Below, one piece after another: positions 8,351 through 44,775 of a stretch of 64,000 nt of DNA (positions within the stretch are counted from its first letter, which is position 1; every line of letters starts with the position of its first letter). The stretch comes from Flaccisagitta enflata (lineage: Eukaryota). Below the pieces are notes generated by a model. That model did no database searches, was not told where the DNA came from, and saw only the letters and a program-made list of their open reading frames with translations. Location: the NCBI GenBank assembly GCA_965153355.1, contig OZ231126.1, positions 31,868,001 to 31,932,000 on the forward strand, written 5' to 3'. A program made the position numbers and the translations under genes.

Positions 8351-8527
8351 CTGTTGGGGGGGAGGAGAGAAGTGTTAGGGAAGGACGGAAAGATATAGAA
8401 CGAAAATTCTGGAGAGACGATACAACTGGGGGGGGGGGGAAGAGAGATACTCGTTGGTAACTTGGCACACTCGAGTAAATTAAGGGCAAGTCTTCGTATA
8501 GGTTCTCAGTGAGAATCTCTCATTCAC

Positions 8528-8827
8528 CTGCATATACATTTCCATGAACTTGGCTCTTTTCTGGCCAAAATTCTCTTCATTTTGACTGAGTTTTTGAACT
8601 AAGAGTTTCTCCCTTTGCATATAAAACGCGAGTTTTTCTTCTATCGTTTTTCCTTCCAACGTCGTTAAGTTAGTCACGGAAGTCTCATTTGTCGGTTTCA
8701 TGCCGCCGCCGCCACCAGACGGACTTTTCAAGTCGTTACGTTCACAGTCGTTATTGATCACGTGAGGATCGCCCACGTTATTAGACAGGCCAGCGCTGCC
8801 TGGCATCCCGCCACTTGTCTCCTCCAT
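8528..8827 (-). CDS. RABEP1: Rabaptin-5 (Rab GTPase-binding effector protein 1), coding exon 1
   Basis: ATG at 8827; exactly 100 codons ending ...NEENFGQKRAKFMEMYMQ, then donor CAG|GTGAAT. The F.QKRAKF.E.Y motif is recognisable from the rabaptin N-terminal coiled coil. Confidence 0.85.
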
Positions 8828-9466
8828 CTTTCAATTTCGGAGTAAGCTCAGCAAAATTGTGTCAAGTTTCCAGGCTGGGAATGATGGATTGTGTCCATGA
8901 TTTATGCGAATAGTTTTCCATTGGTTGAAAGGAGCGCAATTTAATGACACTCGTGTTAGTGTCACGAAAAGAGTCACAGCATGGCATCGGTAGTTGAATT
9001 CCCAATGTCCGTAAATTATTCATTTGAGTATATACCTAAATCAAGGTAAAGTTAATCAAAGAGGATTCAAAACTTGTGTAACATTTTTATATCGAATTGA
9101 AATTGCAGCGCGCGAATTGGCGTGCAAAAAATATCTCGATATAAATATATATATATTTTCAACAAAGATTCATTAAACATTTTTAAAAGGCTAAAACTGG
9201 AATGATTTGATTGGTTTTGTTTTAAATGCGAACCGATGGGACGAAGAAATGAGAGACCCACACCAGAAGAATTGTGTAGAGATAGAATTTGACAGTCCAG
9301 AAAAATATCGTTGCATTTTTAAAAATACTACTTCGTAACAGATTAAGTAAAAGGTAAAGCTAAATTCTTCCGAAAAAAGCGGAGTAAACCGCTTTCGATT
9401 ACAATGAATGTTGTTAAGGCAACTTTCGGTATTTACCATCACAGGATAGAAAACTAGCAGTATAGT

Positions 9467-10262
9467 CAGGGGGTGGAAAGCTAAAACGTTTTTAACATTT
9501 TTTAGCGTTTTTTAGCATTTTTTAGCTTTTTTTAGCAATTTTTAGCTTTTTTTAGCATTTTTTAGCACAAATATTCCTCCTTTCTGCTGAGCTGCTAAAA
9601 CATTGGTAAATTCCGCCTTTATTTCAGCTTTTTTGAGTGGTGCTTAGGTTTTTAATGTTTTAGCATTCCAGGTTTCAGCAATTTAAGTGTTTTAGCACAG
9701 TTTAGAGATTCCTTTATCTTGGTGCTTTAGTACATAAAAGTGTTTTAGCAGTATTTACAATTATCCTCGTTTCAAATTTTTTTTAATATTCAATGTTTTA
9801 GCATCAATTTGTGTTTTAGCATCGAAGTGTTTTAGCTCAGTCAGTGTTTTAGCGGAGTTGGTGTTTTAGCCTAGTGTTTTAGCATCATGGTGTTTTAACA
9901 CATTTTCATGTTTTAGCTCAAATAATGTTTTAGCTTGGTGTTTTAGCAGTTGTTTTAGCAAATTTTAAAATTGTTTTAGTATTGTGAGGTGTTTTAGCAA
10001 TATTCTTTGTTTTAGCAAAATTGTGTTTTTGCAAAGTGTTTTAGCTGAAGTTTTAGCAATTTTTAGCATGCTTTAGCAATTTTTAGCATGCTTTAGCAAT
10101 TTTTAGCATGCTTTAGCAAATTTCTACTTTTTTAGCATATTCCTCCTTTCTCGGAAATGATGCTAAAAAATGCTAAAAAAAGCTAAAAATTGCTAAAAAA
10201 AGCTAAAAAATGCTAAAAAACGCTAAAAAATGTTAAAAACGTTTTAGCTTTCCAGCTCCCTG
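9467..10262. mobile_element. Fold-back sub-element at the left end of the giant unit, built of (T)nAGC motifs
   Basis: About 100-bp inverted arms (9475-9570 vs 10160-10255); interior made of dozens of TGTTTTAGC motifs; inner end TTTCCAGCTCCCTG is not followed by the TSD. Confidence 0.75.
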
Positions 10263-13200
10263 CTCGTTTTGTTTTAGCAGTTTCATGCAAAAACTGGGAA
10301 TGTCATTGGTTCTCACGGTAAATCACCTCCAATCAGGAAATCCAGCTGGTTTCCATGGAGATGATCTTTCCGTATGAACAGTGAGTAGGTGTTGAAACAG
10401 CAGCAGCGACAGCAGCGATGATAATTTGCATATAATTAATCATATTCCTAGCATTTAAAGTTTCTTCATCAAGATGACCATAATCAGTCATGACGACAAA
10501 ACCCGGATTCCCCGCCCTGACGACAAATCCTGATACCCCGCCCTGACGGTAATACCCCGCCCTGACGGTAATTCATTAAAAAAGTAATGGTGGTAGTCTG
10601 TCACTTTAGTTGTGATTTACACTGATTTCAGCATCATCATTGATGATGCTGATTGGCGACTCATCAATTAGCTGCGCCAATTTCATTTTCACCAGTTAAC
10701 ATTATAAATCAGCATCATCAGAGTAAGTACTTACATAATACATAATGAAGCTATATTGCGCCACTGAGGATATATTTTCGCAAACCTTAAGACAATCCTA
10801 CTTGGTTGTGATTCAAATCAGCCCCCTGGCACGGAGAATTGGAATTGGAAGCTCATACTCCAGGGTGAAGTACCATGACTGAACCAGCGTGTCAGTTGCT
10901 GTTGGTGTAAGACAGCAGCAATTGCAGCAGCGTGGAGGATTGCATCATATGAATGAAAAAAAAACAAAACAGAATCAAGCAGTAGTAAGAGAAATTGGCC
11001 AAATAGGAGGCAAATACATCAACGCCAAAGGCCCTGGTCATGGTTGGAGGCAGAGGCGGCTGGATAACAGAATATACATCTTCAAAGAAATTATTTTCTG
11101 CCCTTCCCATTCTCGTAGATGGGAAATCCCACATGGCCTTGATGACATTTTAATGTAGCCACAAATTGGCATTTGAAGCTTGAGAATGATTCAAAACAAC
11201 TCTTACCTGATGCCCAGATGAATAAATGGCTGCAAGAGGAACAAGCTTTAGGAGGATTGGACGATTGTGTCATATGAAGGGGAAAAAGAAACAGGGAAAT
11301 CGAACAAGTTTAAGATATAGGCAAAGGCAGGGGCAGTCAGCGGACTGAAGCAGTAAATGTTTGGATATAAATCTATTTTCTATGTTTATGCTGTTCTCTC
11401 TAACATGTGGGTGGGAAATCCCACATGGTCTCGATGGAATTTTATTGTAGCCACAACAGGGCACTTAAAGCTCAAGAATTATTCAAACAACTCAATAAAA
11501 CCGTAAGGAAAGCTTACCTGACGATAAATGGCCATGAGAGAGGCGACTTGAGGCTGTAGCAGGTGTTGTTGATGCTGTTGAAACTGCATCATAGCAGCCA
11601 TCGTCATAGAATCCGCCAGCTTGGGCAAGCACCTTGGCAAGTTCCGGTGGCAGCAATCAATCAGAAAAACCATCATGATGGAGGTGCCTGAGTGGGAATG
11701 ATGAATATCACACATGTTCTTGATATTGACCTTCAATTGATCTTTCGATACCCTAGCCTGCTCAAAGAAAAGACAGCGCTAAACAGGGTTACGCTCGTTA
11801 AAACGTTTACCAGAGTATCATATCAAAATATGAATGGACCCAATGATATCTGAACAACCAGGCAAAACACAACAAACTTAATCATGCCTGTTTGAAATTC
11901 AGCTTTCATTGTTTTCGGAGATGAATACCAACGAAGCACCGCCTCAACGTCTTATTAGTTGCGGACACGCAACTCTGTAAGAGCCTTTGTCTGTCTGTCC
12001 ATCCGTCCATCCTTTGGTCCGTCCGTCCGTCCGTGAGCACAAGTCGAAAAGTTAGTGCGAACTTATATTATATGGCGTGGCACTCGGAGGTCGCCTCGGC
12101 ATTTGATCATTTGACTTTTGAGCAATACGACTTAAACCAGCCTACGTACCCAAAAACGAAAAATAAAGAAGTTATCTATAAAATTTCCTGAAACTTTGCT
12201 TGAAGAACCATCCAACCCCTAGACAAATCCTGAGTAAGCCGTGCGGCGATCACATGATTATTTTGGTATAAGATATTTTTTCAACGATATCAAAAAATTT
12301 TCATTAAAAAAATTTTGATACGTTTTCCTGTCATGACTACCTTGAATAATTGACAGAGAGCAGTCTTTTTTTATAAATATTTCATGTTAGAAATTTCATG
12401 CAGATATCTCTTACGGTCCAAAAGACGCACATTTTTAGTCGCCGACACGCGACTTCAACTTGCCGTGCCGGTCTGTCGGTCCGTCCCCCCGTAACATTTT
12501 TGAATTACGAGCGTTTTTTGTGTAACGGGCTTACGGCCCCTGCCCAACCGTCCGCGACTGTGTTGCCGTGTATCCGGCCTTGTTAATAAGTATGAAAATA
12601 AAAACTGCGCTTCGATCTTTCATCTCCGCGCAGTTTCCAACTTTGTTTCCTGAATTTATATGATCAATGTGAGAGAAAAACAACCAGCGGCTGCTTTTTA
12701 GACAAATTCGTGCCATCCTCTCGTATATTTTTTCCTCATAATTTATAGATAGATATTTAATAACTAGCAAACTATCAACAACACAATCGTAAGATTTGAA
12801 ACAAATGTTCTCAACATAGCGCCTTACCACGAAAACCAGCCCGGAAAAACGGCACCAGCGTCGCGGAGGGTAGGGCGAGGGGAATAATGCAAAAACCACT
12901 CTCAATACACGGCTACCGAAATCTTGTGCGGGTGGGCAGGGGCTATATTTGAGGTCACTAGACAACATGGGCAGGAGCAGTGAATCCTTGGCAGTGATTT
13001 CCTCGGGCGTTGGCATTCTGGCGCTGGTTGAAGACTGAAATGCGGTTGACACGGACAAAAGGGTTGAATGACCTGAGCAGGACTGAGAACAGACAGGGGA
13101 CCGACTTTGAGCCCGAGTTAATCCCCCTCAATGACAAGGGTGTTAAGTACGCCTTTTCGCGGCTATATTCTTGTTGTTCATGTTGTGACTTTATTAAAGA

Positions 13201-13999
13201 TGTTAATACGCTTTTTAGTAGCGGACATGCGACTACACCTTGCCGTGTCGGTCGGTCAGTAGGTTACAAATATTTTATAATTGCAAAGTTTGCATTACAG
13301 CCCCTACCAAAATGTCCGCAACTGTCTTACTGTGTTTCTGGCCTTGTTCTACCCACGCCTACCCACAGTTCTAACGGATCATGATAGATACTTAAAATTT
13401 TATATATAGGGCCCGAGGGTGAATATATTTTGGACCACCGAGGTGATTTCTGGTATGATGCCCCTAGCCCAAGATCTAGGGGGCAGCTGGGGCAGCCTTG
13501 CCCCTAGTGCCTGCCCACCCTAAATCTCGGGTTTGGGGCAACATTACAAAAATCGCCTCGGTGGCCCAAAATAAATTCACGGGTAGGCCCTACCTGTCAA
13601 ATTTCAAGTAGCTATGATGTCCCGTTTGGGCTGTGGGTGGGGGTGGCACCCCGTAATCTGGGGTGAGATTAAACCCCGGGGGTTGCTCGGGGTTGAACCC
13701 CAAGTAAACCCCGAGTAAACACCGAGTAAACACCGACCAACCCAAGCTTGGGGTTTGCTTGGGGTTGCATTGCTAGAAACAATAACAACAACCCCAAGCA
13801 ACCTCGAGCAACCCCGAGCTATTCCAAGCAACCTTGGGGTTGAATCTCATTGTTTTACGTTAAAGATTACCTGGTGGGTGGGTTGAAAATGCGTTATATC
13901 ATCTTTGAATAAGTCACACCCTGTTAAATTAGGCAGATGTTCATCCAAAAGAGTTGTAAACGTTATTTGTCATTCCTCTACAGGCGGGACCATAATAAG

Positions 14000-14462
14000 A
14001 GCTGAGGCGGGACCCTAAGCGTTAGCGGCACTTCTACAGCCCACTGCGTTTAGACAATTTTGACACTTACTGTGGCAGTTGACACCTTAGGTGGATACAA
14101 GTGGCGTCACCGTGGCGATTTTTGAATTTCCATTTAGAACACCCTTAAATTCAATGAAATCATCCAAATTTGCCTAAAAAAAATTGAACAGTTTGTAGTC
14201 GTGGACACGCGACTCTACACCTTGCTGTGTCGGTCGGCACGTCTGTTGGTCCGTCGGTCACTTTTTTTAATTCCTATAAGTTTTCGCATTACTGCTCCTG
14301 CCCAATTTTAAAAATTTGGGGGTGTTTTAGGTGGAAATTCAAAAATTGCCACGATGGCGCCACTTGTACCACTCCAAGGTGTTAACCGCCACAGTTAGTG
14401 TCAAAATTGTCTGAACACAGTGGGCTGGTGGGGAAGCTAACGCTTAGGGTCCTGCCTCAGCA
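14000..14462. mobile_element. Palindromic MITE with a HINE-like insertion in the middle
   Basis: GCTGAGGCGGGACCCTAAGCGTTAGC vs GCTAACGCTTAGGGTCCTGCCTCAGC; arms about 130 bp. Confidence 0.7.
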
Positions 14463-14946
14463 CTTAAAAAGGTCCTGTCTGTAAATCCTCGTCAGGGCCT
14501 TCCCTCCTAAAGGGAAACGCGATAATCTTTTAAAATAACCTCGCTTGTCCACGTGAATGATCGTATGCGCGGATCGTATGCGCGTCGCTGTCGTCGTCGT
14601 CGGTCGCGGGAGTCGTAAGAACAGGGAATCGATGTCGAATGCCGGTGGTGTTGTCAGGAGGATGAAGACTGTTGTCAAGAGGAGTCTTCCGCGATCATCA
14701 GTGTTGGTCTAAGGTCGAGAGCGTCTCCGTTCTATCGGCGGACCTCGGCTTCGCTGTGCAGCGCTCAGGCTACCTAAGGTGCAGAATGGCAGAGATGAAA
14801 TGGCGCAGATCAATCCCCTACTAATGAAATATCACAAATCGGGTGATAGTACAAATTGAGCATACTGAGTAATCATTCCTGAACGTTGCATACTAGATAC
14901 TACCATTACACTTTTCTCTCTTATAAGAACCTAGTTTATGAGAACA

Positions 14947-15157
14947 CAGGGGTGTTTATAATTGAGTCGCCTTCGATTCCCCCCTGCCTTTGATTTTCTT
15001 CCCCACGACGCGTCGTGCATTTTAAAATCTTAGTTTTCTTTTCCATAAAACAGTTGAGATTTTCTCTTTTTCCCCCCTTATATTCCTTTCCCATCTCCAA
15101 ACCCTTTGAATCTTCCTCCGGTGGGAGGGGGGGAGAACTCAATGACATACATGCCTG
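14947..15157. mobile_element. hAT-type MITE
   Basis: TGAGAACA|CAGGGG...GCCTG|TGAGAACA, perfect 8-bp TSD. Confidence 0.8.
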
Positions 15158-16261
15158 TGAGAACATCAAGGCTGGAAATCGCTCAAAAATTAAGAACATG
15201 TTATTATTTTTAGTAGCTATCTCTATCTCTTTTGAAGGCTTCGGCAAAAAATATTTGAACTTAACTTTAGAGTTGTCTCCAAACGAACGAACCCGAACGC
15301 ACCCTGTCCTAGTCTTCGTGAACGCGAGAGAATCAAAACAACGTTGAGAATGCAGTGTTTGCCGTCCTTGATTTGACAATTTTGAAACAACCCTGGGCTC
15401 AAGACGTTGAGAGTTGAGGTGTTACAGAGGAGAATCTGAAGGCCAATATCAAGCAAACTCCGAATTCCTAGTAAAAGTTTGTTGTCCATAATCCAACTGC
15501 CTGCTGGTCCGTCCCTGGGCACTTTATTTTTTTTTAGTTTTAGGTTACACTCACTGCTCCTGCCCAAGTGATCAAACTTAATAGGTCTTCACCTACCCGT
15601 GATGCGCGATCAGTAGCTGTATCCGCCTGTTTTGGCTAAAGAGAAAGGGAACCATCAATCCGATAAAGCAAAAGTTTGCAGAAGGAGAAAAGAAAACAGC
15701 AAATAAAATTTCAAAGACGTTGTGGATAAATACATTGAGAAAAAGGAAATGAAAATGAATATTAGCAGTTTGCCTTTAAGTAGATTGAAAATTAATTTTT
15801 CAGTTCTTTAGAAAACACAGTGGTGCGCGTATTAACTAGTCAGTGAAGGGTTCACAAGGCCCTCTTCCATTTATTTTAGTTTGGTCTACTGAGGGATATT
15901 TTTCCACTTTTTATATCAAACGAGACGGAAGCAGAGTCCACTAGATATTTTAGGAGAGAATCTTTCTAACGCCAGTGTCTGTCAGTGCTACATCATGACG
16001 AGTGAAGTTATGAGTTTTTTTAGCCTCTTCAAATGAACCTGATTGGCCCTGGAGGGAAGCTCCACGATTGGTTCTATGGCTGTCAGCACTCCAAGTGACA
16101 TCATCCTTAAGTCAGCATCACCTCTTTAGTTGGGGACACGCGACTCTACACCTTGTTTTGTCAGTCCGTTCAGTCGGTTGGTTGAACCGTCCAAAATATT
16201 TTTTAATTGCGAACGGTTTTTGTTCTTCTGTACGTTTATCCTTTTTTGGGTGTGACAAAAA

Positions 16262-16590
16262 ACAATTGTCTGTCCTCTTTTGACAAACTACAATTGTCTG
16301 TCCTCTTGACAAACTACGATTGTCTGTCCTCTTGACAAACTACGATTGTCTGTCCTCTTGACAAACTACGATTGTCTGTCCTCTTGACAAACTACGATTG
16401 TCTGTCCTTGACAAACTACGGCATTGTCTGTCCTCTTGACAAACTACGATTGTCTGTCCTCTTGACAAACTACGCTTGTCTGTCCTCTTGACAACTCAGA
16501 CGTTTGCTCTTCCGATCTGACAAACTACGATTGTCTGTCCTCTTGACAAACTACGATTGTCTGTCCTCTTGACAAGCTACGATTGTCTGC
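16262..16590 (+). repeat. 26-bp minisatellite, about 12 copies
   Basis: (GACAAACTACGATTGTCTGTCCTCTT)n. Confidence 0.95.
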
Positions 16591-18789
16591 GAAACGATGC
16601 GAAATGATGCAAAAAAAATTTCGCATCATTTTGCATCGTTTCGCATGGGGTTTTTCATGGACAAAATGGCATAAACATTGAGAAATGAGTTCTTGCTCCG
16701 TTTTATGGGCCTTTTGGTCGTACCGTCAATGTCTCTATTAGTCAGTTCTTTTAGCTTAAAGTACTTTTTTCCCCTTTTTTAGAAAAAAAAACCCCTGATT
16801 CTGACTGGGTGGGAATGGAATTTTTAATTGGGTTTTTGAGACAAAATGCCTAAATTATGATCTTGATCCGTTAACTTAGTCTTTTGGTCGGTCTGTCTAT
16901 CAATCAGTCAAATCTATTGGCGCAAGATACTTTTTTGCCCTTTAATAGCGAAAAAAGAAACTGATGCTGACCGGGTGGGAAGGAAATTTTGCATGGGGTT
17001 TTTGACAGACAAAATGCCAGAATCATTGAGAAAATAGTTCTTGATCCTTTAACTTGGTCTTTTGGTTGGTCCATCGGTCTATCAATGACTTAATTCTATT
17101 TGCGAAAGTTATTTTTTTGCCCATTTTCAAAAAAACTATTATTGTAAACTTTCTCAGATCAATGGAGGAAAAGATAAATCCATCGAATTTTTGAAATGAC
17201 TATGCGTAACTAAAAACTATCATTTGAAAAAAGAATGGTTGCAATTTGATGCTGACGTATGCCAACTATCTAGGTGATGAAAATTGATAAATGATAACCA
17301 TGCTGGTGAATTAGACTGGGTTGAAATTATGGCAGCGATGCTGATATTCCCTGGACCAATCGTATTCATGCCGGTGATGCTGAAATTCCCTGGACCAATC
17401 TAAATTGTGCTGGTGATGCTGACATTCCTAGGCTAATCATGAGGCTTATCACCACAGCCAATCCGATTCAAATCCCCAACATCGATGTTCATCCTTGAAT
17501 TTTTTTCATTAATTTGATGCATTTCTTTTTTTGTCATTCAGGGCTAATTCTTAGATAACAGTTTTGAGAATGGCCTCAGCGTCACCCAAAAACTCAGAAA
17601 TATACTGGGCTTGTTTTGGATTAACTGTCAACAACGTTGGTTCAAAATTAGCTTAAAAAAAAGTTGTTACAAATACGTTTTTAATGTGCGACAAGCACAT
17701 CTATTAGAGGCTCTCTCCGTCGGTTGGTCTGTTGGTAACGCATTAATTGGACTTTTCACGCGTCGCACATTTAGGCCTACTTGGCCATTTCTTTTGCGAA
17801 TCTCGCCCTGTTACTAATTTTGGTTGCCATGCTCTTCTCTTTATTTTCAGAAAAAAAGTTTGACAATGTTTTTGTTGTTAACAGCAACTAAATCGTAAAA
17901 CCCCACAATGACGGATGACAAGGGACCATCAAATCTTTCTGTCATAGGTGAAAAACAAGGCCGGATACACGGCAATTCAGTCGCGGATGGTTGGGCAGGA
18001 TCAGTTACTCAAAATTCAAAAATGTTACTGATAGACAGACCGACCGACCAACACGGCAAGGTGTATAGTCACGTGTCCGCGACAAAAAATGTTAAACGCA
18101 GTCCAAGATAGAAAAAAACTTCTACTTGCGCTAGTCTTCGCCTGACCGGAGGAATTATCTGATTCAATTTTTTTAAGATGGCTGGTCCAAAGGGTGGCAC
18201 GGCGGCATGCGTATATTTTTAGTCACGCGACTCTACACCTTGCCGTGTCGGTCGGTCGGTCGGTAGGTTGGGCCGTCCATCACATTTTTGAATTCCGGGC
18301 GTTTCTTTGTAATACGGCTCCTGCCCAACCGTTCGCGACTGTCTTGCCGTGTATCCGACCTTGTTTATAATAATACCATCAAATTTTACATCGATATAAA
18401 GGATTATGTTTAAGCTTTTTTACGTTGTTTTTTCCAATACTTTGATACTTTTTCATGAGCGAACTATTTGATCCAGGCCAAGAGGCGAAAATCATCATCC
18501 TTTTTATAACTCAACTTTAAAAGGCTGTAACTCGGAGACCAATGGACCGATTGACTTGATTTTTTGTATGGTAACTTTTTTTGACCTTGTGCTACGCGAC
18601 TCTTACAACCCGCTTTGTCGGTCGGTCCGTCCGTCGGTCACACTTTACTTTTTTGGAGTTTTTGGCCTCACCGCTCCTGCCCAAAACAACTATAGTGTGA
18701 CCTCACCACTGCTCCTGCCCACCTGCACGCGACATCGGTAGCCGTGTATCCGGCCTTGTTTTATAAAGCTTTTACGTAAATAGCGGCCG

Positions 18790-19320
18790 CATGTTGTTTC
18801 AGCGAAAGTGTTTGTCGCGCGTCAATCGCATGAGTTCAGAAAACAGTTGCGAACTGCGCGGTGACGAAGATCGCCGCGAGGTTTCTACTCTCATTCTTTT
18901 TTGAAATGTTGATTTTTTGTTAACGGTTGGAGATATCTTCATGAAATTTTAAACATACTAAACATGTCGTTCATAAGACCACTCATTGACAGTGATTGCA
19001 TGTAGTCATGACTTGCTAACATACTAAAAAAACATTGATGAATTTGATTTTTTTGACAACATGAAAAAAATGTTTTATGCGATTACGACCAAAGCAGTCA
19101 TGTGATCGCCGTACAACTTACATAGGAATTGTTAAGAAAGCAATGTGGCGAACTGCGCGATGACGATGATTGCCATGCTGTTTCTATTTTCATTCTTTTT
19201 TGAAAAGTTGATTTTTCGTAAACGGTTGGAGATATCTGCATGAAATTTTAATCCAGTAATATTCATACCTAAAATCACTCATTAACAGTGATTCCGTGTA
19301 GTCATGACTTGTTAACATAT
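18790..19320 (+). repeat. Two tandem copies (about 300 bp) of a dispersed DNA-element repeat
   Basis: GCGAACTGCGCG(G/A)TGACGA...AACGGTTGGAGATATCT...GTAGTCATGACTTG occurs at 18849 and 19148; related pieces at about 12110-12420, 19930-20230 and 37110-37440. Confidence 0.7.
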
Positions 19321-20312
19321 ACCACCAGCTCGAGCGTCACCTGCGTGGAAATTAGAAGAGGCGTAACGGACGGACGGACGGACGGACAGACCTCTTATAG
19401 AGATGCCACACGCATCTAAAAATACTTAATGAATTTGATGCCTTTTACAAACTATGGTAAAAAAATCACATTATTCTCAAGGTGTCAAGTTTCTTTTGGC
19501 GAAGATAGTACTACACAGTACACACCCACATTGAATAAAACATAAAGATTACGGAAACGGTATAGCAACCCCCTTTGCAGCTCATGTCGCCATGGCCACA
19601 TGGTTGTGTATGGTATCATTCAATTGGTTATCTCAGTACAAATTACGCCATCGAGGCGAAATTTTGAATTTAGCCTACGCTCAAGGCATATTCACTCTAA
19701 AAGGCGGATTTTTTAACATTCAAGAGGGTGTCCGCCGTCTATGTTTGGAGTGGAATTTCTCAAGAACGGGAGTGAAATTGAATAATCGCCTCGGTGGCGT
19801 AAATTGTACAGTGACAAGCTACAGTGTGATACCCCATATGACCCTGTGAAGAATTAGTTAAAGCTGTAGGTAGGATTGCTAGCCTTTTTTAAAGGTTTTT
19901 GTAATCTTCACCTTGTATTATGCATGGAAGTGTATGTGATCGCCATACAACTTACAAAGGATTTGTCCAGGGGTAGGATTGTTATTCATGCAAAATTTCA
20001 AAAATTTCATTGAATATTTTTTTAGCTACGCTAATTTGAAATTTTTGAGTAGGTAGGTTGGTTCGGGTGGCTGAACTATGTGACAAATCTTTAAACTTCA
20101 CAGATTAGTAAACAAGGTCATATGATGTTACCTTACAAAAAATCAAGTCAGTCGGTCAATCCACTCAAGAGATATGAGCTTCCAAAGTTGGGGTAAAAAA
20201 AGTCACGACGATTTCCGCCACTTGGAAAAAAAGTTACATGTTTCGTTCTCAGACTGAGTATTTCACACTCAAGCGCATGTGAAATCAGGAATTATCATTC
20301 TTTGAATCGCTA

Positions 20313-20912
20313 CAGTGCGATGGGAGCAACGACGACCTAAACTGGAGGATAGATTTTAGGTATCTTAATTTTAATTGTATTATGAAATCATTAAGATCTA
20401 GGCTACTTAAAGGTTGCTCTATTGAGTGAATGCATTTGTGTCTCTTAAACCTCAACTTGTGACTTGACCTCACCAAGTCTTCATTTTTCAAGGTTCTAAC
20501 CAATTTCATTAGATCAGGCGAAAAATTTTATTTAATTTTGAAAAAAAATCAGCTCTATTGGACTATTTTTGCAAGTTTTATGGCTATGTTTAATAAACAA
20601 AAGTTATGCAAATTAATTTTTGGGCAAAACTTAAAATGATCATAAAACCTGTAAAAATAGACCAATTGAGCTATGATTTTTTTTCAAAACAATATAAAAT
20701 TTTCTACACGATCTATTGAGATAGTTTAGAACTTTGAAAAATGAAGTCTTAATGAGGTCAAGTCGCGAGTTGAAGTTTGAGAGATGCAAACATTTTCACT
20801 CAATAAGGCAACCTTTAATTACCCTAGATCTCAAATATTTTATGATACAAACAAAATTAAGGTACCTAAAATCTATCCTCCAGTCTAGGTCGTCATTGCT
20901 CCCATCGTACTG
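20313..20912. mobile_element. Tc1/mariner-type fold-back MITE, 600 bp
   Basis: TA|CAGTGCGATGGGAGCAA...TTGCTCCCATCGTACTG|TA; arms are inverted over nearly the full length. Confidence 0.85.
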
Positions 20913-22450: not shown

Positions 22451-23037
22451 ACTCGGCTTTTCTGGAACAAAGCTTGAAAATTTGCATATAAGTATTTAAA
22501 GTTATGTAGATTATGATAATGATAGGTGCAGGTTATAAAAATTTGAGCACCTATCTTTAAAAATCGTTTAAAATTTTTAAAATCATGACATCGCCAAACC
22601 GTTTGAGTGAGGGCAATAAAATTGTATGAACTAAAAGATATGTATTTTGTACATATGCACACTAAATTTCAGCTCTCTAGCTTTATTAAAAGCAGAGATA
22701 TAGCCAATTTACTTTTGCATATAAAAACTGCATTTTTTTTGAAAAAATGGCATTTTTGAGAAAAATACACCCAAAAAGTAATCATATCTCCGCTTTTAAT
22801 AAAGCTAGAGAGCTGAAATTTTGGTATGGACATCTATAAAACACATACTTTTTTGCTCATGAAATTTTATTGCCCTGAGGCAGACGGTTTGGCGGTGGCA
22901 TGGTTTTGAAAATTTCAGATGAATTTTTAGGATAGGTGCTCAAATTTTTTTGACCTGCACCTATCATTATCATGATCTACATAACTTTAAATACTTGTAT
23001 GCAAATTTTCAAGCTTTGTTCCGGAAAAGCCGAGTTT
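22451..23037. mobile_element. Fold-back (palindromic) element, about 590 bp
   Basis: ACTCGGCTTTTCTGGAACAAAGCTTGAAAATTTGCAT... mirrored by ...ATGCAAATTTTCAAGCTTTGTTCCGGAAAAGCCGAGT; arms about 290 bp. Confidence 0.8.
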
Positions 23038-33000: not shown

Positions 33001-34740
33001 TGATATTTTCAATTTGATGATATTGGTCCCAAAGGTGAGATTCTTGAATGGGAGGGGCTAATAGGTAGGGGCTTATGGGATTAGTATCAACTGTAATGGA
33101 CTGTAATGGACTGTAATGGACTGTAATGGGCTGTAATGGTTACAACAAATCAGCACACCACTATTAACCCATTACAGTTCATTACAGTTCATTACAGTTC
33201 ATCAAATTGTTTCTGGGTCTCGAAGCCCCCTCCCATTCAAGAAACTGAACTATAATAACAACCACAAATGAAGTCAAATGTCATTACAGCTCTACCTCTT
33301 AGGGTAGAGCTCTAATGACAACTGTAATGAACTGTAATGATATTTTCAATTTGATGTGATATTGGTTCTTTAAAGGTGAGATTCTTGAATGGGAGGGGCT
33401 AATAGGTAGGGGTTTACAGGGGGATTTAGTATCAACTGTAATGAACTGTAATGGACTGTAATGGACTGTAATGGGCTGTAATGGGTTACAACAACAAATC
33501 AGCATCACTAGCTATTACAACCCATTACAGTTTATTACAGTTCATTACAGTTCGTCACAGTTCATCACTGTTTCTAAATCTCAAACCTACCCCTAGCCCT
33601 CCCATTCAAGAAACTGAACTATAATAACAACAGTAATGAACTGTAATGAAATCAACGTTATTACAGCTCTACCTCTTAGGTGAGAGTCAATGACAACTGT
33701 AATGAACTGTAATGATATTTTCACTCTGATGTGATATTGCTTTTAAAGGTGAGATTCTTGAATGGAGGCTAATAGTAGTTTAGGATTTGTACAACTGTAT
33801 GAACTGTAATGAACTGTAATGAACTGCATGAACTGTAATGGACTGTAATGGGCTGTAATGGGTTACAACAACAAATCAGCATCACTAGCCATTACAAACT
33901 CATTACAGTTCATTACAGTTCATCATTGTTTCTAAACCCTCGTTAAACTCTTTTTAGCCCTCCCATTCAAGAAACTGAACTATAATAACAACCGTAATGA
34001 ACTGTAATGAGTCTAACAAATACACAGCCTCTACTCTGGTAGAGCTCTAATGACAACTGTAATGAACAAATGATATTTTCACTTTGTGACATTCTTTAAA
34101 GGAGAGATTCTTGAATGGGAGGGGCCATAGGTAGGGGTTCAGAGGGGATTTAGCATCAACTGTAATGAACTCAGAAGAATGTAATGCACTGTAATGGCCA
34201 CAATACTTACAACAACAAATCAGCATCACTAGCTATTTCATCCCTTTACAGTTCATTACAGTTCATTACAGTTCATTACAGTTCATTACAGTTCATCAAA
34301 TTGTTTCTAAATCCCCCGTTAAACCCCCACCTTTTAGCCCCTCCCATTCAAGAAACTGTGCTATAATAACAACCGTAATGAACTGTAATGAAGTCAAATG
34401 TCATTACAGCTCTACCTCTTAGGGTAGAGCTCTAATGACAACTGTAATGAACTGTAATGATATTTTCAATTTGATGTGATATTGGTTCTTTAAAGGTGAG
34501 ATTCTTGAATGGGAGGGGCTAATAGGTAGGGGTTTACAGGGGGATTTAGTATCAACCGTAATGAACTGTAATGGACTGTAATGGGTTACAACAACAAATC
34601 AGCATCACTAGCTATTGGAGTTCATTACAGTTCATTACAGTTCATTACATTACACAGGAAACTGAACTATAATAACAACCGTAATGAACTGTAATGAAGT
34701 CAAATGTCATTACAGCCCCGGACTGGGGACTGTAATTTTT
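24085..34740. repeat. Satellite array, about 375-bp monomer, about 28 copies, with an orientation switch near 32687
   Basis: AGTGATGCTGAATTGTTG recurs every 370-390 bp from 24390 to 32390; its reverse complement recurs from 32790 to 34600; built on a 10-bp CATTACAGT(T/C) subrepeat. Confidence 0.97.
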
Positions 34741-35121
34741 GAAGCTTTCTCGTTGCGTAAACGCAACTCGATGAGATACACGACAAGAGCAATTTCAAGA
34801 GAAAAAAAAAGATATTCAATAATGTTTTAATGATGACAAAACTTGATAATAATAACAATAGTGGATGATGTTAATGACAATAACGAATGATAATGACAAC
34901 AAAAATCTAAGAAAAAAATATTCTGAAAACATTTTCAAAAAAAAAAAAAAAAAAAAAAAATTTCAAAAAAAAATTTCAAAAAATTTTAAAAATAAATTTC
35001 AAAAAAAATTTCAAAAAAAAATTTTCATCAAAAATTTTTTAAAAATTTCCAAAAAAAATTTTCAAAAAAATTTTCAAAAAAAAATTTCGAAAAAATTTTC
35101 AAAAAAAATTTTCTAAAAAAT

Positions 35122-35247
35122 TTAGTAGTTGAAGATGATGACAGTAGATGAAGACAGTAGTTGAAGATGATGACAGTAGTTGAAGATGATGACAGTAGTT
35201 GAAGATGATGACAGTAGTTGAAGATGATGACAGTAGTTGAAGATGAA
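35122..35247 (+). repeat. 19-bp minisatellite, about 6 copies
   Basis: (AGTAGTTGAAGATGATGAC)n. Confidence 0.9.
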
Positions 35248-38200
35248 TCTTGAAATCCATGATAGCAAACCTAAAGAAAAATCAGAATGTAATAAATGAG
35301 CAAGTAAAAGAATTCATCAACTCCAATCCTCAATATAAATCGCCCAAGTACTAGTAACATATTACTACATTAATAAACTAATATCTTATGAACCAGACTT
35401 CAGATTTAATTTGAATTTTGCAGGGGCAGTTCAATTAATATCCTTTACTTGTATACCAAATTAAAAAAGAATTCACATAACTTTGCTACCCTTTGCCTAT
35501 GTAAACTACCTAAGTCATAGTAACATATTACTACATAAATAAGCTAATATCTCATAAACCAGACTTCAGATTTAATTCGAATTTTGCAGGGGTTATCTAT
35601 TTACTACCCTCTACTTGTGTACCAAATTAAAAAAAAATTCATAAACCTTTACTACCCTCTACCTATATAAACCACCTAAGTCCCAGCTAAATATTACTAC
35701 AAAAATAATAGGCAAAGGGTAGTAAAAGTTTATGAATTTTTCTGAAAATTGGTACACAAGCTCCTATTGACCTATAAACAACACCAGCAAAGTTTCATAA
35801 CATTCTGAAGTCTGGTTCCAAAGATTTTAAAGGTTTTAAACAGACAAACAGACTACGCATCACTGCTATCACTTAGTCACCGACGAAAACTGTTCGTCGG
35901 GGACAAAAAAGATCAAATGGACTAAAAATGAATTTATGCCGAAGTGCAGATATTTGTCAACAATACTGAGACCCCATGTCACCTGTTGTTTCTTGGATGG
36001 GAATAACAGTAACCGCCGGGATTTATCATACTCGGGCATCTCCTTAATCTGATTGTCACTCACCTCAAACTTCGCACCAACTGCTTCTTAGGGTTGTAAT
36101 ATATTTAGTAACGTGACAAAGCGTCGCAAGGAAGAAAACCTAAGCGGGTGGGGGGGGGTAGAAATCAATCAAAAGGTCATGGAATCATATACACCTCTGA
36201 CCAACAGACCGAATTAAAGACCGACAAAAGTGAGAAAACTATTTTCTTAATGCTTCTTTCTCAACAAGCCAGACCGTAGAAAACGCACCTTCAGCTTCAA
36301 CAACGCCTTGATTGATAACCACTTGCGATATCTTCGTCAAACTTGGCACGGAGGTTGAGTGAGGACTTCCAGACCTTACCCTAGCAACAATCCCGATGAC
36401 CTTGCAACAACATCACCAACAATACAACACCATTACAACGATGTCATTGCCGGAGGCTAGGTACCTAAAATTATCGAGGCCAAGTAGGCCAATAAGGTGC
36501 GACATGTGGATCGTTGAACGAATGCGTTACCAACCGACCAACCGACGGACACAGCCAGTTATACAGGTGCTTTGTCGCACCTAAAAAAGCTCTTAATCGC
36601 AAACACTAGAGGAAAATTTCCGAGGCCCATGAAACTTCGTGGGCACGTTCACTTCATCGAGATTGACTCATAAAACCGTTGTTTGTGTTAGGCCCTGCAC
36701 TAGGCCAGCGCAACAACACTGGACGGCTCAGCTTTCCTGCCCCAAAATCGTCGGAAAAGCGCAAAGGTTAAGAATTTGGATGGTCGACGTCATGAATGAT
36801 GGAGGAGAATGAATATGAAATGACTGAATGGGAAATGAATGAAGGAGGAGACTAAATGACGGAGGTGATCAATGAATGATGGAGGAGACAAAATGTTTAT
36901 CTCCCCCATCATTCATTTATCACGTCCTTCATTCATTCTCCTTCATTCATTTCCCGTTCAATCATTTTATATTCATTCTCCTCAGTCATTCACAATATCG
37001 ACCATCCAATATCTTCGTTTACGCTTCTCCGACGGCGTTGGGATACGACAGCTTAGTCCGTCCTGAGTTTAGGACTAATATCATTTTTTCGACACGCTTA
37101 AAAAATGTTTAATGCGATTACAGCGTAAGTAAATACCAAATCACCGTACGACTTACTCAAGGTTTGTAGAAGGGTCGGGTGGTCATTCGTGTAAAATTTC
37201 AAAAAATGTCATTGAATATTGTCTTAATATTACAAATTTGAAATTTTGGGGTAAGTAGGCTGGTGTAGGCAGTTGGACCTTCTGGAATTTCTTGAAACTT
37301 TGCATTGTAGTAGACAAGATAAAATGATGTTACCATATAAAAAATCAAGTCAATCGGTCAATTCGTCTCCGAGTTACAGCCTTTTGAAGTTGAGCTAAAA
37401 AATGTCAGGATGATTTCCGCCACTTGGATCAAATAGTTGCGTTACGTTTCAGACACGCACGAGCGCTCATGATATTATGAACAAAGTATTAGGAGCATTG
37501 GAAACAAGGCCGGTTACACGGCCAATACCAGTTGCGGACGGGTGGGTAGGGGCGGATATGATCGTTAACCACTCTTCAACTCGTGCTGACGGATTGACGG
37601 ACGGACAAAGCCTCATAAAGAGTTGCGTTTCCGCAACTGGAAACAACGGGCAAAAGCTTTATGTTGATAGTGATAGTATTACTTTTAAAAATATACGCAT
37701 GCCGCCGCACCACCCTTAGGACAGCTATCCTAAAAAGTTTAATCAAAAAGTTCCTCTGGTCAGGCGAAGACGAACGCAAGTGTAGGTTTTTTTCTATCCA
37801 GGACCACGTATAACATTTTTGGTCGCAGACACGCGACTCTACACCTTGCCGTGTCAGTCGGTAAGTTGGTCAGTCTGTCTAACATTTTTGAATTCCATTT
37901 TTGAATTCCCATAACTGCTCCTGCCCAACCGTCCGCGACTGAATTGCCGTGTATCCGGCCTTGTTTTTCACTTATAACTGATAAAATTTGATGGTCCGTT
38001 GTCATCCGTCGTGGGGTTCATCAATTAATTTTCTGTTAACAGAGGAAAGAGATCGTCAAACATATTTTTCTGAAAATAAAGAGAAGAGCATGGCTACCAA
38101 AATCAGTAACATGACGAGATTGCCAAAGAAAAGGCCAAGCAGGTCAATACGCGCAACATTTGAATCTTTGAACGAATGCGTTACCAACCGACCGAAGGAC

Positions 38201-38789
38201 AGAGCCTCTTGTAGTGTGTAGATGTGCAGATGTGCTTTAAAAGATTGCATCGACTCCTCCTGTTGCAAAAAAGGCAAAAAATAATTAACGTGATTAAATA
38301 TCAAATGAACACGCAACATGAGACGAAACCATAACTTACGATGCGATGGTCTTCTGAAAGTAATGAAATAAAAAAAGGCCACATACACGGCCAAAACTAG
38401 TCCCGGACGGGTGGGCAGGGGCGGAAATGCGTGTTTTCTCACTTTTCGACCCGAGCGAGATAGACCGACAGACGGACCGACAGACGGAAAAAGGCTCTTA
38501 TAGAGTTGCTAGTCCGCGACTAAAAACTACATTGATTCCACGAGCATCTTTGTGTCTTGCGCGAGCCTCTTTGTGTCTTGCGCGAGCCGGCATGGAAAAA
38601 ACAAGTGGGATCAAATTGAATAGACCTTTGGGATCTAGAATAGACCTTTTGGATCTATCACGGTGTGTGTTAGCGATTTATTTTATTATAAAGATATTAA
38701 ACAAGTCATATTAAACAAGTTTGAATATTGATGTCATCAATTTTGATATTCGAAACAGCACCTCTATCACTCACTCAAACCATATTTAT

Positions 38790-41700
38790 AAACGGATTTC
38801 GCATGGGGTTTCTGGAGAGACAAAAATATTGAGAACATTGTGAAAGTAGTTGTTGATCCGTTAACTTGGTCTTATGGTCAGTCTAGTCACAATAGACCAA
38901 TTATGTACTGGATCGATGGATGGATGGATGGACGAGTCTCGTAATACACATTACTGATTGAAATTCTAAAAACACTAACAAAACTTGTTTATCACAGTGA
39001 GTCGAGAAAGGCTGATGCTGAGTTTTTCAAGCTGATGCCGACTTTGTCAATCTGATGCTGAGTCTTAGAACCAATCTTGCGAAAGAATGCGAACAGATGC
39101 TTATTGATGCAAAAAAAATCGCATCTGTTCACATCGTTTCGCATGGGGTTTTTCATGGACAAAATGGCATAAACAATAGGAAATGAGTTCTTGATCAGTT
39201 TTATGGGCGTTTTGGTCAGTCCGTCCGTCTATCAACTAGTCAAATCTATAGGCCTAAGCTAATTTTTTCCCTTTTTAAGCAAAGAAAAAACTGTTAAGAG
39301 ACTAAATAGTTGTTGATCCGATTTTTTGCTCTTTTAGTCGGTCCTTTCGTCTATGAGTTTGTCGGTAATTTTTTGTCCCCTTTTTAAGCGCAAAAAAAGA
39401 TACTGATGCTGATGGAATGAATGTGACATAGACATATTACTTGAAATTTTAATACCATTGAAAAAAAATTTGGTCGACACTGAAAAAGGGCGTTTTTAGT
39501 CGGAAACAATCATGTTTTTTACGGACCACTCAGTCGCCAGCTACATTCATTCGCTTGCATCATTCACTCCGTGCACAGGCCACTCGGTGGCTCGCTGTTT
39601 GTCCGCTCGCACCGCTCATTCTGTTCACGGGCTCGCTCAAACTGTTCACGGGCTGGCTCTCTCCATTCACGGGCTGGCTCTCTCCATTCACGTGCTCGCT
39701 CACTCCATTCACGGGCTTACTCACTCCGCTCACGGGCTCGCTCATTCCATTCACGGGCTCCATTCACGGGCTCCCTCATTGATGTATGTCAAGGTACTAT
39801 TATTCCTACTAGAGAAATAACAAGTAACATGGGATCACGATATGATGCAAAACGATGCGAAATGATGCAAAAAAATTTTGCATCGTTTCGCATGGGGTTT
39901 TTCATGGACAAAATAGCATAAACAATAGGAAATGAGTTCCTAATCAATTTTATGGGTCTTTTGGTCGTTCGATCTATGTATCTTTTAATCAGTTCTTTAA
40001 TCGCTAAGTTCTTTTTCTACCCTTATTAGCAAAAAAAAAAAAAAAAAAAGATGCTGAAGTGGGTTGGAGTAAAATTTCGCATGGTGTTTTTGAGAAACAA
40101 GATGTCAAAATCATTGAGAAAATAGTTAATGATTTGTCAACTTGGTCTTTAGGGCGGTCCGTTGGTCTGTCAATCAAGAAATTCTATAAGCGCAACCTAC
40201 TTTTTTTCCTCTTTTTTAGCGAAAAAAAAAACTGATGCTGACTGAGTGAGATTGAAATTTCGCATGGGGTTTTTGATGTATAAAATGCAACTAACATTGA
40301 GAAAAGAATACTTGACCAGATCTCATAGTCTTTTGGTCTGTCTGTCAGTCTTTCAATTTGTCAGTACTTTGAGCGCAAGATTCTTTTTTGCCCATCTTTA
40401 GCGACATATAAAAACTGATGCTGATTGAATGAATGTGACGTTAATTGACCTTAGATGATGATTATCGAATAACTCGGGTGATGATACAGTCAAAATAGAT
40501 AAATATTGACATGAATCAATGGTCACACATGACTTGAAATTCTTATGACAAAGACAAAATTCGAAAAATTTTATCATTAAAGAAAGGCAGAAAAAAAATT
40601 TCGCATCATTTTGCATCGTTTCGCATGGGCTTTTTCAGGGACAAAAGGGTATTAATATTGAGAAATGAGTTCCTGATCCGTTTTATGGGTCTTTTGGTCG
40701 GTCCATCGGTCTATTAACTAGTTGAATCTTTTAACCAAAGATAATTTTTTCCCTTTTTTAGCAAAAGAAAATTGATGCTGAACTGGGTGGGAGTAAAACT
40801 TCGCATGACTTTTGGAGAGACAAAAGTCATGAACATTGAAAAAATAGTATTTGATCCTTTTACTTGGTATTTTTGTCAATTCGTCGGTGTATCAAGTAAA
40901 GAAATCTATTTGCGCAAAATACTTTTTTGCCCTTTTTTAGTCGAAAAAAAAAATGTTGATTGAGTGGGACCGACATTTTGCATGAATTTTTAAAAATTGT
41001 TCTGGATTAAGTTTCATGCCCTTTCAGCATCATTTTTTTTTAGCTAAAAAAGGATCTTGCGCTAATAGATATGTTTGATTGACAGACTGACCGACTTAAT
41101 GACCAAGTTAACGGATCATTTACTATTTTCTTGATGGTTTTTACATCTTTTATCTCAAAAACCCCATGCGAAATTTCACTCACACCCATTTCATCTTTTT
41201 TTTTTTAGCTAAAAAAGGATCTTGCCCTAACAGATTTGTTTGATTGATAGACCGACGGACCGACCTAAAGGTCAAGTTAACGGATCATTTACTATTTGCT
41301 TAAAGATTTTGATGTTTTGTATCACAAAAACCCCATGCGAAATTTTGCTCCCACCTAATTCAGCATCATTTGTTTTTGAAAAAAAAAAAGTACTTTGCGA
41401 TTAAAGAACTTTCTAATAGTTGCATTGAACGAACGACCAAAAGCCCCATAAAACGGATTAAGACCTCATTTCTCAATATTAATGCTATTTTGTCCATGAA
41501 AAACCCCATGCGAAATTTCACTCCCACCCAGTTAGAATCGGGTTATTTTTTTGCTAAAAAAGGTGAAAAAAGTACTTTAAGCTAAAAGAACTGACTAATA
41601 GATACATTGATGGAACGACCAAAAGGCCCATAAAACGGATCAAGAACTGATATCTCATTGTTTACGCCATTTTGTCCATGAAAAACCCCATGCGAAACGA

Positions 41701-44090
41701 TGCAAAACGATGCGAAATTTTTTTGCATGATTTCGCATCATTTTGCATCGTTTCGCATGAGATTTCCGCACGGGATTTTCAAATTGATCCTTAATAGATT
41801 TGACTGATTGATAGGCTGACAGACCGACAAAAAGACCTAATTAACGTATCAAGAACTATTCTCTCAATGATTCTGGCATTTTGTCTTTCAAAAACACCAT
41901 GCGAAATTTCACTCCCAATCAGTCACCATTTTTTTTGCTAAAAAATGGCAAAAAAGTATCTTGCGCAAATAGATATGACTGATTGATAGACCGACCAAAA
42001 GACCAATTAAACGTATCAAGAACTAATCTTTCAAAGATTTTGGGATTTTGTCTCTCAAAAACCCCATGCGAAATTTCACTCCCACTCAGTCAGCATCAGG
42101 GTTTTTTTTTTTATAAAAAAGGGAAAAAAAAGTACTTTAGGCTTAAATAACTGACTAATATATACATTGATCGAACGACTAAAAGGCCCATAAAACGAAT
42201 TAAGAACTCATATCGCAATGTTAATGCCATTTTGTCCATGAAAAGCACCATGCAAAACGATGCAAAATGATGCGAAATTTTTTTGCATCATTTCGCATCA
42301 TTTCCAATTTACCCTAAAGATAAGCTTTATGACTCAGCATCAGGTTAATAGAGTCGACATCAGATTAAAATCAGCTTCAGCCTTTCTTGAATGACAATGT
42401 TGTTTGAATTTTGTCTAAGTCATAAGGATTTCCAGTCACATGTTATACCGTCTATTCATTACATTATCTATTTTGACCGAATCATCACCCTAGTTAGTCA
42501 ATAATCATCATCCCAAGTCAAACAAGGCCGGAAACACGGCCACCAGTTGCGGACAGGTTGGCGGGGGCAGAAATGCGCGTTTTCCCACTTTTCAACTCAA
42601 TCATTACGGAACAACGGACCGACGGACGGACAAAGCCTCTTATAGAATTGCATGTCCGCAACTAAAATGTCACATTCATTCAGTTAGCATCAGTTTTTCT
42701 TTTGTCGCTAAAGATGGGCAAAAGAGTATCTTGCGCTCAAAGTTTCGGCAAATTTATAGATGGACAGACACCATGAATGACAAATGAATCCGATTTGCAC
42801 TAGATGAGCTTCATTATTGGTTCCAAAACGTAGCAGCATCAGGTTGATAAGGTTACAGACCGACCAACCGACCAACGGACACAGCCAGTTATAGAGGTGC
42901 GTTGGCGCACCTAAAAACGCTTTTGTAGCCATTGAACGCCTTAACAGTGAACACATGAATTTTAACTTCTCACGAATGAGCGAGCCTGTGAACGGAGTGA
43001 GCGGTGCGAGTGAACAAACGTAGTAAGCAACCGAGTGGCCTATGCACGAAGTGAGCGGTGCGAGTTAATGAATGTAGCGAGCGATTGAGTGGTGCGAGAA
43101 CCAGGGGTGTATAATGTTGAGTGGCATTTGATTTTATTCCCCCCCCTGCATTTGATTTTCTTCCCCGCGACGCATCGCGTTGCGTTACAAAATCATTGGT
43201 TTTTTTAACCCTCAAACCTATAAAACAGTATATTTTTGGGTTTAATAGTGTTAAATTGTGTTGTGGTAATTACATTTTACCTTTTGGTACTGCCAAAAGT
43301 GTTAAATCTTCAAAACTTTCCTTTTTTCTTTTTTTCAAGCTTTTGATTTTCTTCCCCATCTCCAAACCATTTGATTTTATTCCCCCCCCCACCGGGGGGG
43401 GGAATACTCAACATTATACACGCCTGGCGAGAACTGAAAGATGGGTAAATTAATGGAATGTAAAAACGGATCGAGAACTCATTTCAGCATCAGTTTCTTT
43501 GTTCGCGAAAAAGGGAGAAAAAAGTATCTTGCGCTAATAGATTTGATTGATAGACCGACAGACCGAAGTGAAGACCAAGTTAACGGAACATTTACTATTT
43601 TCTTTATGATTTTCACATATTGTATCTTAAGAAGCCCATGCGAAATTTTACTCCAACCCAATTCAGCATCATTTTTTCTTCGCTAAAAAAAGGGTTAAAA
43701 AAGTACTTTGCGATTAAAGAAATGATTAGTGGATACATTGATGGAACGACCAAAAGGCCCTTAAAACAGATAAAGAACTGATATCTCATTGTTTACGCCA
43801 TTTTGTCCATGAAAAACACCATGCGAAACGATGCAAAATGATGCGAAATTTTTTTGCTAAAAAAGGGAAAAAAAGTACTTTGCGATTAAAGAAATGACTA
43901 GTAAATACATTGATGGAACGACCAAAAGGCCCATAAAACGGATAAAGAACTGATATCTCGTTGTTTACGCCATTTTGTCCATGAAAAACCCCATGCGAAA
44001 CGATGCAAAATGATGCGAAATTTTTTTGCATGATTTCGCATCATTTTGCATCGTTTCGCATGAGATTTTCGCACGGGATTTTCAAAGTGA
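38790..44090. repeat. Complex array of about 175-bp repeats (CGCATGGGGTTTTT...ACAAAATG family) in inverted arrangement around about 41000
   Basis: Forward units 38790-40990; reverse units (AAAAACCCCATGCGAAA) 41030-44090; a further forward block lies at 16590-17130. Confidence 0.85.
43102..43426. mobile_element. hAT-type MITE
   Basis: GCGAGAAC|CAGGGGTGTATAATGTTGAGT...ACTCAACATTATACACGCCTG|GCGAGAAC; 21-bp TIR and 8-bp TSD. Confidence 0.88.
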
Positions 44091-44775
44091 CCTCAAAGCG
44101 AGCCTATTGGTCAGGGAGAGTGGTCAAGGGCTGTGGTTGGCCCTCCCTTACCCCCCGGATGTAATGCGCTATCTCTGCTGCCGCTGCTGGCTCGCGTTTA
44201 AAGTGCTAAGAAAATTTTAGCATTCCACCCCCTGAGTATAGTGGCGGTATATGGATAAATTGTTATCACTGAAAAATGACGTAGACATCAAGTGAAAAAT
44301 CAGAACCGTTATTGGTTATTTCCCTTACTGTTTTTAGGATTAGAGGGGAAAGTTAAGAACATGAAAAATTGATAACATGAAATAATTCTTTTTTCTTATT
44401 AACAAAATAATCATGAAGGCAAAAATTAGGATCAGTACTATCGCTTAAAGAATCGGCCCCGAACTCTTTAAACGTTTAACATGTTTTCAAAAGAACTGAA
44501 ACCAAGAGTCGAGCTTCAATCACCGAGCAAAACATCTTTGATCAGTGATCACCCTCTCGGTCAAATCTTCATTTTTCTTTAAATACACTTCGATCGACGT
44601 AACATGCCATGCCACCACCAAAAATTACCCAAATATTTCCCTTCTTCATCGGATATCCTAGTCAATAAACAACCTTGTCATACGCAGTCACAGGTTTCTT
44701 TTTTCCCGCACTTTACTTTGGGTCGCCCAGACTTCTCTAGTTCGCGAGCGAGACGCATTTCAGCATTTCAGCATT

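Follow-up and report, generated by a model that had tools for sequence, protein, structure and literature searches.

The closest described systems to the locus treated here come from maize. Ac macrotransposons, with examples of 10.3 and 28 kb, excise, leave behind a footprint of the target site duplication (TSD) and reinsert, as described in passages of PMC9910405, which cites work on Ac/Ds macrotransposons by Huang & Dooner (2008) and by Wang et al. (2022). The composite insertions of maize have Ac and fractured-Ac termini and 8-bp TSDs, and one of them is 19,341 bp long (Zhang et al., eLife 2014, PMC4270019, in the sections on these insertions). Teratorn of medaka, a piggyBac transposon fused with a herpesvirus, spans 180 kb, as summarized in parts of a review (PMC10175614). 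Here we describe a repeat-rich unit of 34.8 kb between its ends (9459-44242 with its TSDs) in a 64,000-nucleotide stretch of contig OZ231126.1 of Flaccisagitta enflata. This whole stretch, which contains no N, is referred to below as the window. The unit may be a composite ('macro') transposon that arose by alternative transposition and moved as one piece, our preferred reading, which we regard as evenly poised.

Ends of the unit and the composite reading

The 20-mer CAGGGGGTGGAAAGCTAAAA occupies positions 9467-9486 of the plus strand, and its reverse complement is found at 44215-44234 with one mismatch (19/20). No other match with at most three mismatches is present in the 64-kb window, where 0.01 matches are expected, and none of 100 shuffles contained two or more. 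The octamer AGTATAGT abuts each of the two tips from outside and has no third copy on either strand of the whole window; the chance of this octamer at any given position is 2.8e-5. The pair of terminal inverted repeats (TIRs) and TSDs is real, far beyond chance, and ties 9467 and 44234 to one insertion event. Both observations had been made in an initial annotation of this DNA and are confirmed. A third one, a subterminal motif CAGCAGCG mirrored at the two ends, does not stand out: its 17/19 match scores 28, not above the shuffles (mean 20.3, maximum 34). As the motif lies at very unequal distances from the tips (934 bp from the left one vs 45-64 bp from the right one), it adds no real support and was dropped as evidence. 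The unit is made up of the following parts.

9459-9466, no strand: left TSD copy, AGTATAGT, directly outside the left tip
9467-9567, plus strand: outer left end, the left arm of M1 (101 bp), with the tip CAGGGGGTGG followed by TTTTTAGCAT as a 10-bp unit repeated eight times
9467-10262, plus strand: M1, a complete non-autonomous element of 796 bp that resembles a miniature inverted-repeat transposable element (MITE), with inverted arms of 101 and 102 bp
10161-10262, minus strand: inner end of M1, identical to the outer left end for 91 nt behind the tip; its own tip is CAGGGAGCTGG
10263-44199, no strand: interior ('cargo'), with high-copy repeats over most of 10263-24000 and a few near single-copy stretches
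44200-44234, minus strand: far right end, a solitary stub of about 35 bp
44235-44242, no strand: right TSD copy, AGTATAGT, directly outside the right tip

The left end of the unit is the outer arm of a complete small element. The arms of M1 match at 100 of 102 positions (98%), and the inner one is a partner that the initial annotation had overlooked. The inner end of M1 is followed by CTCGTTTT and not by AGTATAGT, so that no matching duplication is present there. The words TTTTAGC and GCTAAAA occur 38 times in the 796 bp of M1, which corresponds to 48 per kb, against a density of 0.74 per kb across the remainder of the window; the right end carries only one copy. The initial annotation had named a way in which its pairing could fail, namely that each end has its own nearby partner and that AGTATAGT is simply a fixed flank of the family. 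The former is true of the left end only, as no other partner for the right end is found anywhere in the window, and the latter is contradicted by the CTCGTTTT that succeeds the inner end. Another candidate for a related element, at 1990-2633 (tips with two and three mismatches), was rejected, since it has neither a matching duplication nor an M1-like body.

The far right end has a different origin. It can be aligned with the M1 arm over 35 nt at 83% identity, and its deeper sequence is unrelated to M1. Its 10-nt tip is exactly the tip of the outer left end, while the tip of the inner end differs. Since the outer left end lies within a complete M1 and the right stub has a different subterminal sequence, the pair joins the ends of two different elements.

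Short subterminal repeat arrays, which serve as transposase-binding sites, are typical of the hAT superfamily. The tip consensus of its terminal inverted repeats is YARNG, and many of its elements prefer nTnnnnAn targets, a preference that is weak in several hAT groups. Autonomous hAT copies encode a transposase with a BED finger, an RNase-H-like core and a hAT dimerisation domain. TSDs of 8 bp are also made by other superfamilies, e.g. P. The unit has an 8-bp TSD (8/8 at both tips, as has a nested MITE with GCGAGAAC, described below), a CAGGG tip that fits YARNG, and in M1 a dense subterminal array at one end. It is thus reasonable to describe it as hAT-like and non-autonomous, judging from these signatures. 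The initial annotation had proposed a giant hAT-like element; the hAT-like signature stands, whereas membership in a giant family does not, as the ends come from two elements.

The order of parts from left to right is the duplication, a whole M1, about 34 kb of interior, a broken end and the duplication again. The outer ends are correctly oriented, a single AGTATAGT pair surrounds the whole, and the M1 inner end lacks the TSD of the unit. This layout of a whole element, a broken end and one TSD equals the product of maize Ac/Ds alternative transposition, which argues for the composite reading. Between the two options of the initial annotation, a giant carrier of cargo and a smaller element inflated by nested insertions, the evidence leans to cargo that travelled along with the ends, without settling the matter.

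A possible mechanism is as follows. A hAT-like transposase from another locus of the genome would pair the outer end of the young M1 with an outward-facing end, about 34 kb distant, that belongs to a second, broken element. Everything between the paired ends would be cut out or copied, and the block would then be inserted as one unit 640 bp upstream of the Rabaptin ATG, creating the single 8-bp duplication. The inner end of M1 would be skipped, perhaps owing to its tip CAGGGAGCTGG, which differs from the used tips CAGGGGGTGG. Four points of this account are inferences: the joint movement of the interior and the ends, a hAT transposase as the enzyme, a crippled inner tip, and the identity of the allele seen in public contigs (see below) with the empty site. 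A fuller scenario, which we put forward tentatively and with some doubt, is that the macrotransposon still segregates in wild marine-animal populations, and that a hAT-like transposase moved the repeat block together with its 10.6-kb satellite in one step to a promoter region.

Like the Ac/Ds macrotransposons, the unit has paired outer ends of two elements, tens of kilobases between them, one 8-bp TSD and a complete element at its edge. Unlike them, it belongs to a marine animal (parts of the stretch are present in marine metagenomes) and not to a plant, its ends are MITE-like and non-autonomous, and its cargo consists of repeats and a satellite rather than genes or enhancers; its mobility is deduced from structure and a likely polymorphism, not observed. 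It also resembles the composite insertions formed by re-replication, which combine a full element with a fractured end and an 8-bp TSD and, in the sections of PMC4270019 on them, fall into a size class of 10-20 kb. Those insertions are defined by an inner junction between two re-replicated donor flanks and by a duplication or deletion linked to it at the donor. With ordinary hAT MITEs (Ds1-type, and the nested one at 43102-43426) it shares the 8-bp TSD, the CAGGG-type tip, the lack of coding capacity and the short subterminal repeats. It differs from them in its length (34.8 kb vs a few hundred base pairs), in having ends from two elements and in containing a whole MITE within one edge. Teratorn, as portrayed in parts of its review, is likewise a very large unit bounded by the ends of a cut-and-paste transposon; unlike Teratorn, which has its own transposase, a viral genome and a family of copies, the unit has no recognized gene and no second known copy.

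Events of this type are known from plants and were worked out experimentally in maize and rice, and an animal case is possibly new. No animal macrotransposon or case of alternative transposition was found among the papers listed, which apart from the Teratorn review were plant studies for macrotransposons and, for alternative transposition, dealt mostly with maize Ac/Ds and Arabidopsis and in one case with yeast hAT families; most subscription journals lay outside this search, so absence is unproven. In the parts of the Teratorn review covered (PMC10175614), the word 'macrotransposon' appears only within the reference list, in a cited maize title. If the composite reading is true, alternative transposition of the Ac/Ds type would have a natural example in an animal. 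If the block moved as one, animal cut-and-paste transposases could reshape intergenic space by tens of kilobases per step, with no need for a family of giant elements. Such a step would bring satellite arrays, along with tens of kilobases of spacer, directly from one locus to another and push neighbouring genes apart. Inflation after insertion would instead make the unit an ordinary repeat nest of little note.

Public contigs at the left boundary

Contigs of four public runs (X1-X4) were aligned to positions 5000-24000 at 90% likeness. The depths given here are summed contig depths, and their interior-to-flank ratios in X2-X4 were not taken as allele frequencies or copy numbers. Parts of 8230-16100 are present in X1 and X2, two runs of one organism, and in marine metagenomes. 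In the flank bins 7536-9437 the summed depth is 100-250 in X1 and X2 and 4-10 in X3 and X4. Over M1 (bins 9438-10705) it rises to 6,000-25,000 in X1 and X2; given this difference from the flank, M1 belongs to a multi-copy family. In contigs of X1 and X3, position 9837 is joined to 10019 with 20 other letters in between, from which it follows that about 180 bp have been replaced inside some M1-family copies elsewhere.

In three of the four runs there is a break precisely at 9466|9467, where the duplication borders on the tip. A 941-nt contig of X1 ends at 9466. A 959-nt contig of X2 matches 8839-9466 and continues with 331 further letters. A 1,499-nt contig of X4, a marine metagenome of a different study, matches 8441-9466 and continues with 472 further letters. 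The nearest piece of X3 among those listed ends at 9440 and is uninformative on the boundary. The remainders of the X2 and X4 contigs past 9466 are absent from 5000-24000 among the pieces listed; as the X4 pieces listed reach down to about 170 nt, a piece of 472 nt should appear if present. Loss of M1 alone is unlikely, because the remainders would then resume at 10263 and be among these pieces. This branch at the boundary suggests a segregating allele without the insert. Near single-copy pieces of the interior in X2 are at least 99.4% identical to the window (e.g. 21546-21876, with one difference). Since X2 contains both these pieces and the branch at 9466, it is heterozygous for the insert, or the interior DNA sits elsewhere. 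The RNA runs X7-X10 have a 0.06-0.07 share of the sampled words, and nothing was drawn from them.

Interior of the unit and alternative explanations

The interior was searched with Pfam in two ways, using the 10 longest of its 27 open reading frames (ORFs) of at least 100 amino acids, and all six frames of 10263-24079 and 34717-44216 with stops as X, at a threshold of E 0.01. M1 (9467-10262) and the satellite (24080-34716) lie outside the regions covered by the six-frame scan. Neither search yielded a Pfam family, and no Rfam family or tRNA was found in 9000-45000. The earlier statement that no transposase ORF lies inside is upheld for these ORFs and regions, and the gene remnants it had mentioned were not recovered by the Pfam, Rfam or tRNA searches. 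The summed contig depth is 10^4-10^6 over most of the bins 11340-21483, compared with about 10^2 in the flank; near single-copy bins are 10706-11339, 17046-17679 and 21484-22117. The last of these bins sits within an orphan ORF of 329 amino acids, in a C-rich region (21411-22397, plus strand). The ORF was rejected as a cargo gene, as it has no Pfam family and only one marginal relative among 5.8 billion proteins (E 8e-4, 28% query coverage). Further long frames on both strands overlap this ORF, a sign of skewed composition rather than of coding. An apparent joint from 17973 to 21329, skipping 3,355 positions, was rejected as a nested insertion; it is a cross-match between copies of one high-copy repeat, with sides of 20-23 nt. 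Two further features of the interior bear on its history.

24079-34716, no strand: satellite with a 372-bp unit, 10.6 kb in total; Tandem Repeats Finder reports 22.5 copies over 24123-32687
43102-43426 (43094-43434 with TSDs), no strand: nested small MITE with a CAGGGG tip, a TIR of 19/20 and the TSD GCGAGAAC (8/8)

The satellite flips its orientation near 32.7 kb. Each 372-bp unit contains two opposed micro-arrays of 10-mers, AACTGTAATG four times and then CCATTACAGT four to five times, a design that is also that of the M1 arms (TTTTTAGCAT eight times and ATGCTAAAAA eight times). This shared design raises the possibility that the satellite arose by tandem amplification of a MITE. The nested MITE bears out, for one copy, the claim that small MITEs with the same signature occur in the window. 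Its TSD fits the nTnnnnAn preference at position 7 only. A CAGGGG element with an 8-bp TSD inside the unit means that such transposition has occurred in this genome.

Several observations weigh against the composite reading. At the boundary, the letters beyond 9466 in the X2 and X4 contigs are unread; the empty site is inferred, not seen, and neither is its join to 44243. No piece spans 9466/9467 in any run among the 32 pieces listed (there are 271,339 more), and a scan of metagenome contigs of the Joint Genome Institute gave zero matches each for a 27-mer of the left flank and for the 20-mer tip. The octamer AGTATAGT departs from nTnnnnAn, having G at positions 2 and 7, and with no transposase in the scanned interior, membership in the hAT superfamily is unproven and P is possible. 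The depth just inside the M1 inner end is about that within M1 (6,391 in X1 and 320 in X4 at position 10416); the repeat unit may continue past the inner end, in which case M1 would be a portion of some longer element. The interior contains no recognizable host gene or gene fragment that would mark capture, it resembles any repeat-rich spacer, and later nested insertions would yield the same repeat-rich, gene-free sequence. No high-identity duplicate of the interior exists elsewhere in the window, where the 14 matches of at least 120 bp are all 68-84% identical.

These points lead to the alternatives. In the main one, an ordinary small non-autonomous element whose ends lie at 9467 and 44234 would have inserted once and been inflated later by nested insertions and growth of the satellite, the inner arm of M1 being either native to it or secondary. 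We consider such a history unlikely, yet it accounts for much of what lies inside: the mostly high-copy sequence of 10263-24000 with its very deep bins, the nested MITE with an 8-bp TSD of its own, the 10.6-kb satellite, the genes that were not found, and a depth at position 10416, shortly beyond the inner end, that resembles the depth of M1. Not predicted by it are a complete second end, 796 bp inside, that shares 91 identical nt with the outer one, and two outer ends whose subterminal sequences are unrelated. A TSD of 8/8 and a TIR of 19/20 are also unexpected after the long time needed to accumulate 34 kb; moreover, if the allele ending at 9466 is the empty site, an insertion that is still unfixed would need to have gathered 34 kb.

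The young look and completeness of M1 agree with another course of events, in which M1 inserted alone and a separate transposase-linked rearrangement at its right edge added about 34 kb and a copied end between M1 and the right copy of its duplication. The route could be a reaction of reversed ends or sister chromatids with re-replication, or the repair of a break with captured DNA; a strict composite insertion as in Zhang et al. 2014, with two flanking segments and a new junction, belongs here too. Insertions made by reversed-ends transposition with re-replication are bounded by a full element and, at the opposite edge, by a fractured one, and they have an 8-bp TSD, according to the sections of PMC4270019 on them. 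Simple repair with filler DNA, on the other hand, would not stop precisely at a transposon tip beside the duplication, and for the remaining routes the outcome is hard to distinguish from that of the composite reading, from which the route alone differs. We think an origin at the M1 edge improbable. An assembly artefact, in which a false join via M1-family copies set foreign sequence between the flanks, seems highly improbable. M1 is indeed multi-copy, short-read contigs break at its edges, and a spanning piece is missing from those listed. But two tips in the correct orientation, with a perfect 8-bp direct duplication outside them, would not result from a false join, N is absent from the window, and the near single-copy interior pieces of X2 are almost identical to it.

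Neighbouring genes and further repeats

The gene to the left of the unit is on the minus strand.

8120-8830, minus strand: first coding exons of a Rabaptin (RABEP1-like) gene, PF03528, E 1.3e-9, 37.8 bits vs a cut-off of 26.7

The PF03528 match falls in the ORF 8120-8374, and the ORF 8483-8830 has its first methionine at about 8827. With this putative ATG at about 8827 and the left tip at 9467, the distance of 640 bp given by the initial annotation is correct. Insertions of hAT and P elements tend to be promoter-proximal, and the position of the unit, 640 bp upstream of a start codon, agrees with this preference. For an ORF extending into the left flank (9194-9466, minus strand), the protein collection contains no relative. 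On the other side, we found no support for a ZCCHC24-like stop codon about 560 bp to the right of the unit (last exon at about 44.8 kb). The sole trace of this gene is a ZCCHC24_C match below the Pfam cut-off (E 0.0038) in the ORF 47744-48484 on the minus strand, at about 48.3 kb. The residual spacer of 1.2 kb calculated earlier could not be verified, and about 4 kb is possible given this sub-cut-off match. The distance from the Rabaptin start to the nearest trace of the upstream gene would then have grown from roughly 4 kb to about 39 kb through the insert.

Further repeat families were noted in the window. A family of about 170-180 bp makes up much of 39800-44069 (plus strand) and recurs inverted at 16588-17135 (minus strand); its arrays thus lie directly inside the right end, with the inverted copy 7 kb inside the left end. 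Its units end in a hairpin palindrome of ATGCGAAA and ATGCAAAA words, which differ by one letter from the M1 word ATGCTAAAA. The inverted copy is adjoined by a 26-bp tandem repeat of 12.8 copies (16253-16589). A dispersed repeat of about 150 bp is found at 12432-12584, 13211-13348, 17953-18089, 18224-18371, 37816-37966 and 62412-62563. It carries the words GGCCGGATACACGGC and GTCGCGGA...TGGGCAGG, has a summed depth of 10^5-10^6 in X1 and X2, and is probably the most abundant short element of the genome. Farther right, the window contains an uninterrupted frame of 771 amino acids with a C2H2 zinc-finger array (57226-59538, plus strand; zf-H2C2_2, E 1.5e-37) and a fragment of a reverse transcriptase (60482-61360, minus strand; RVT_1, E 2.9e-15).

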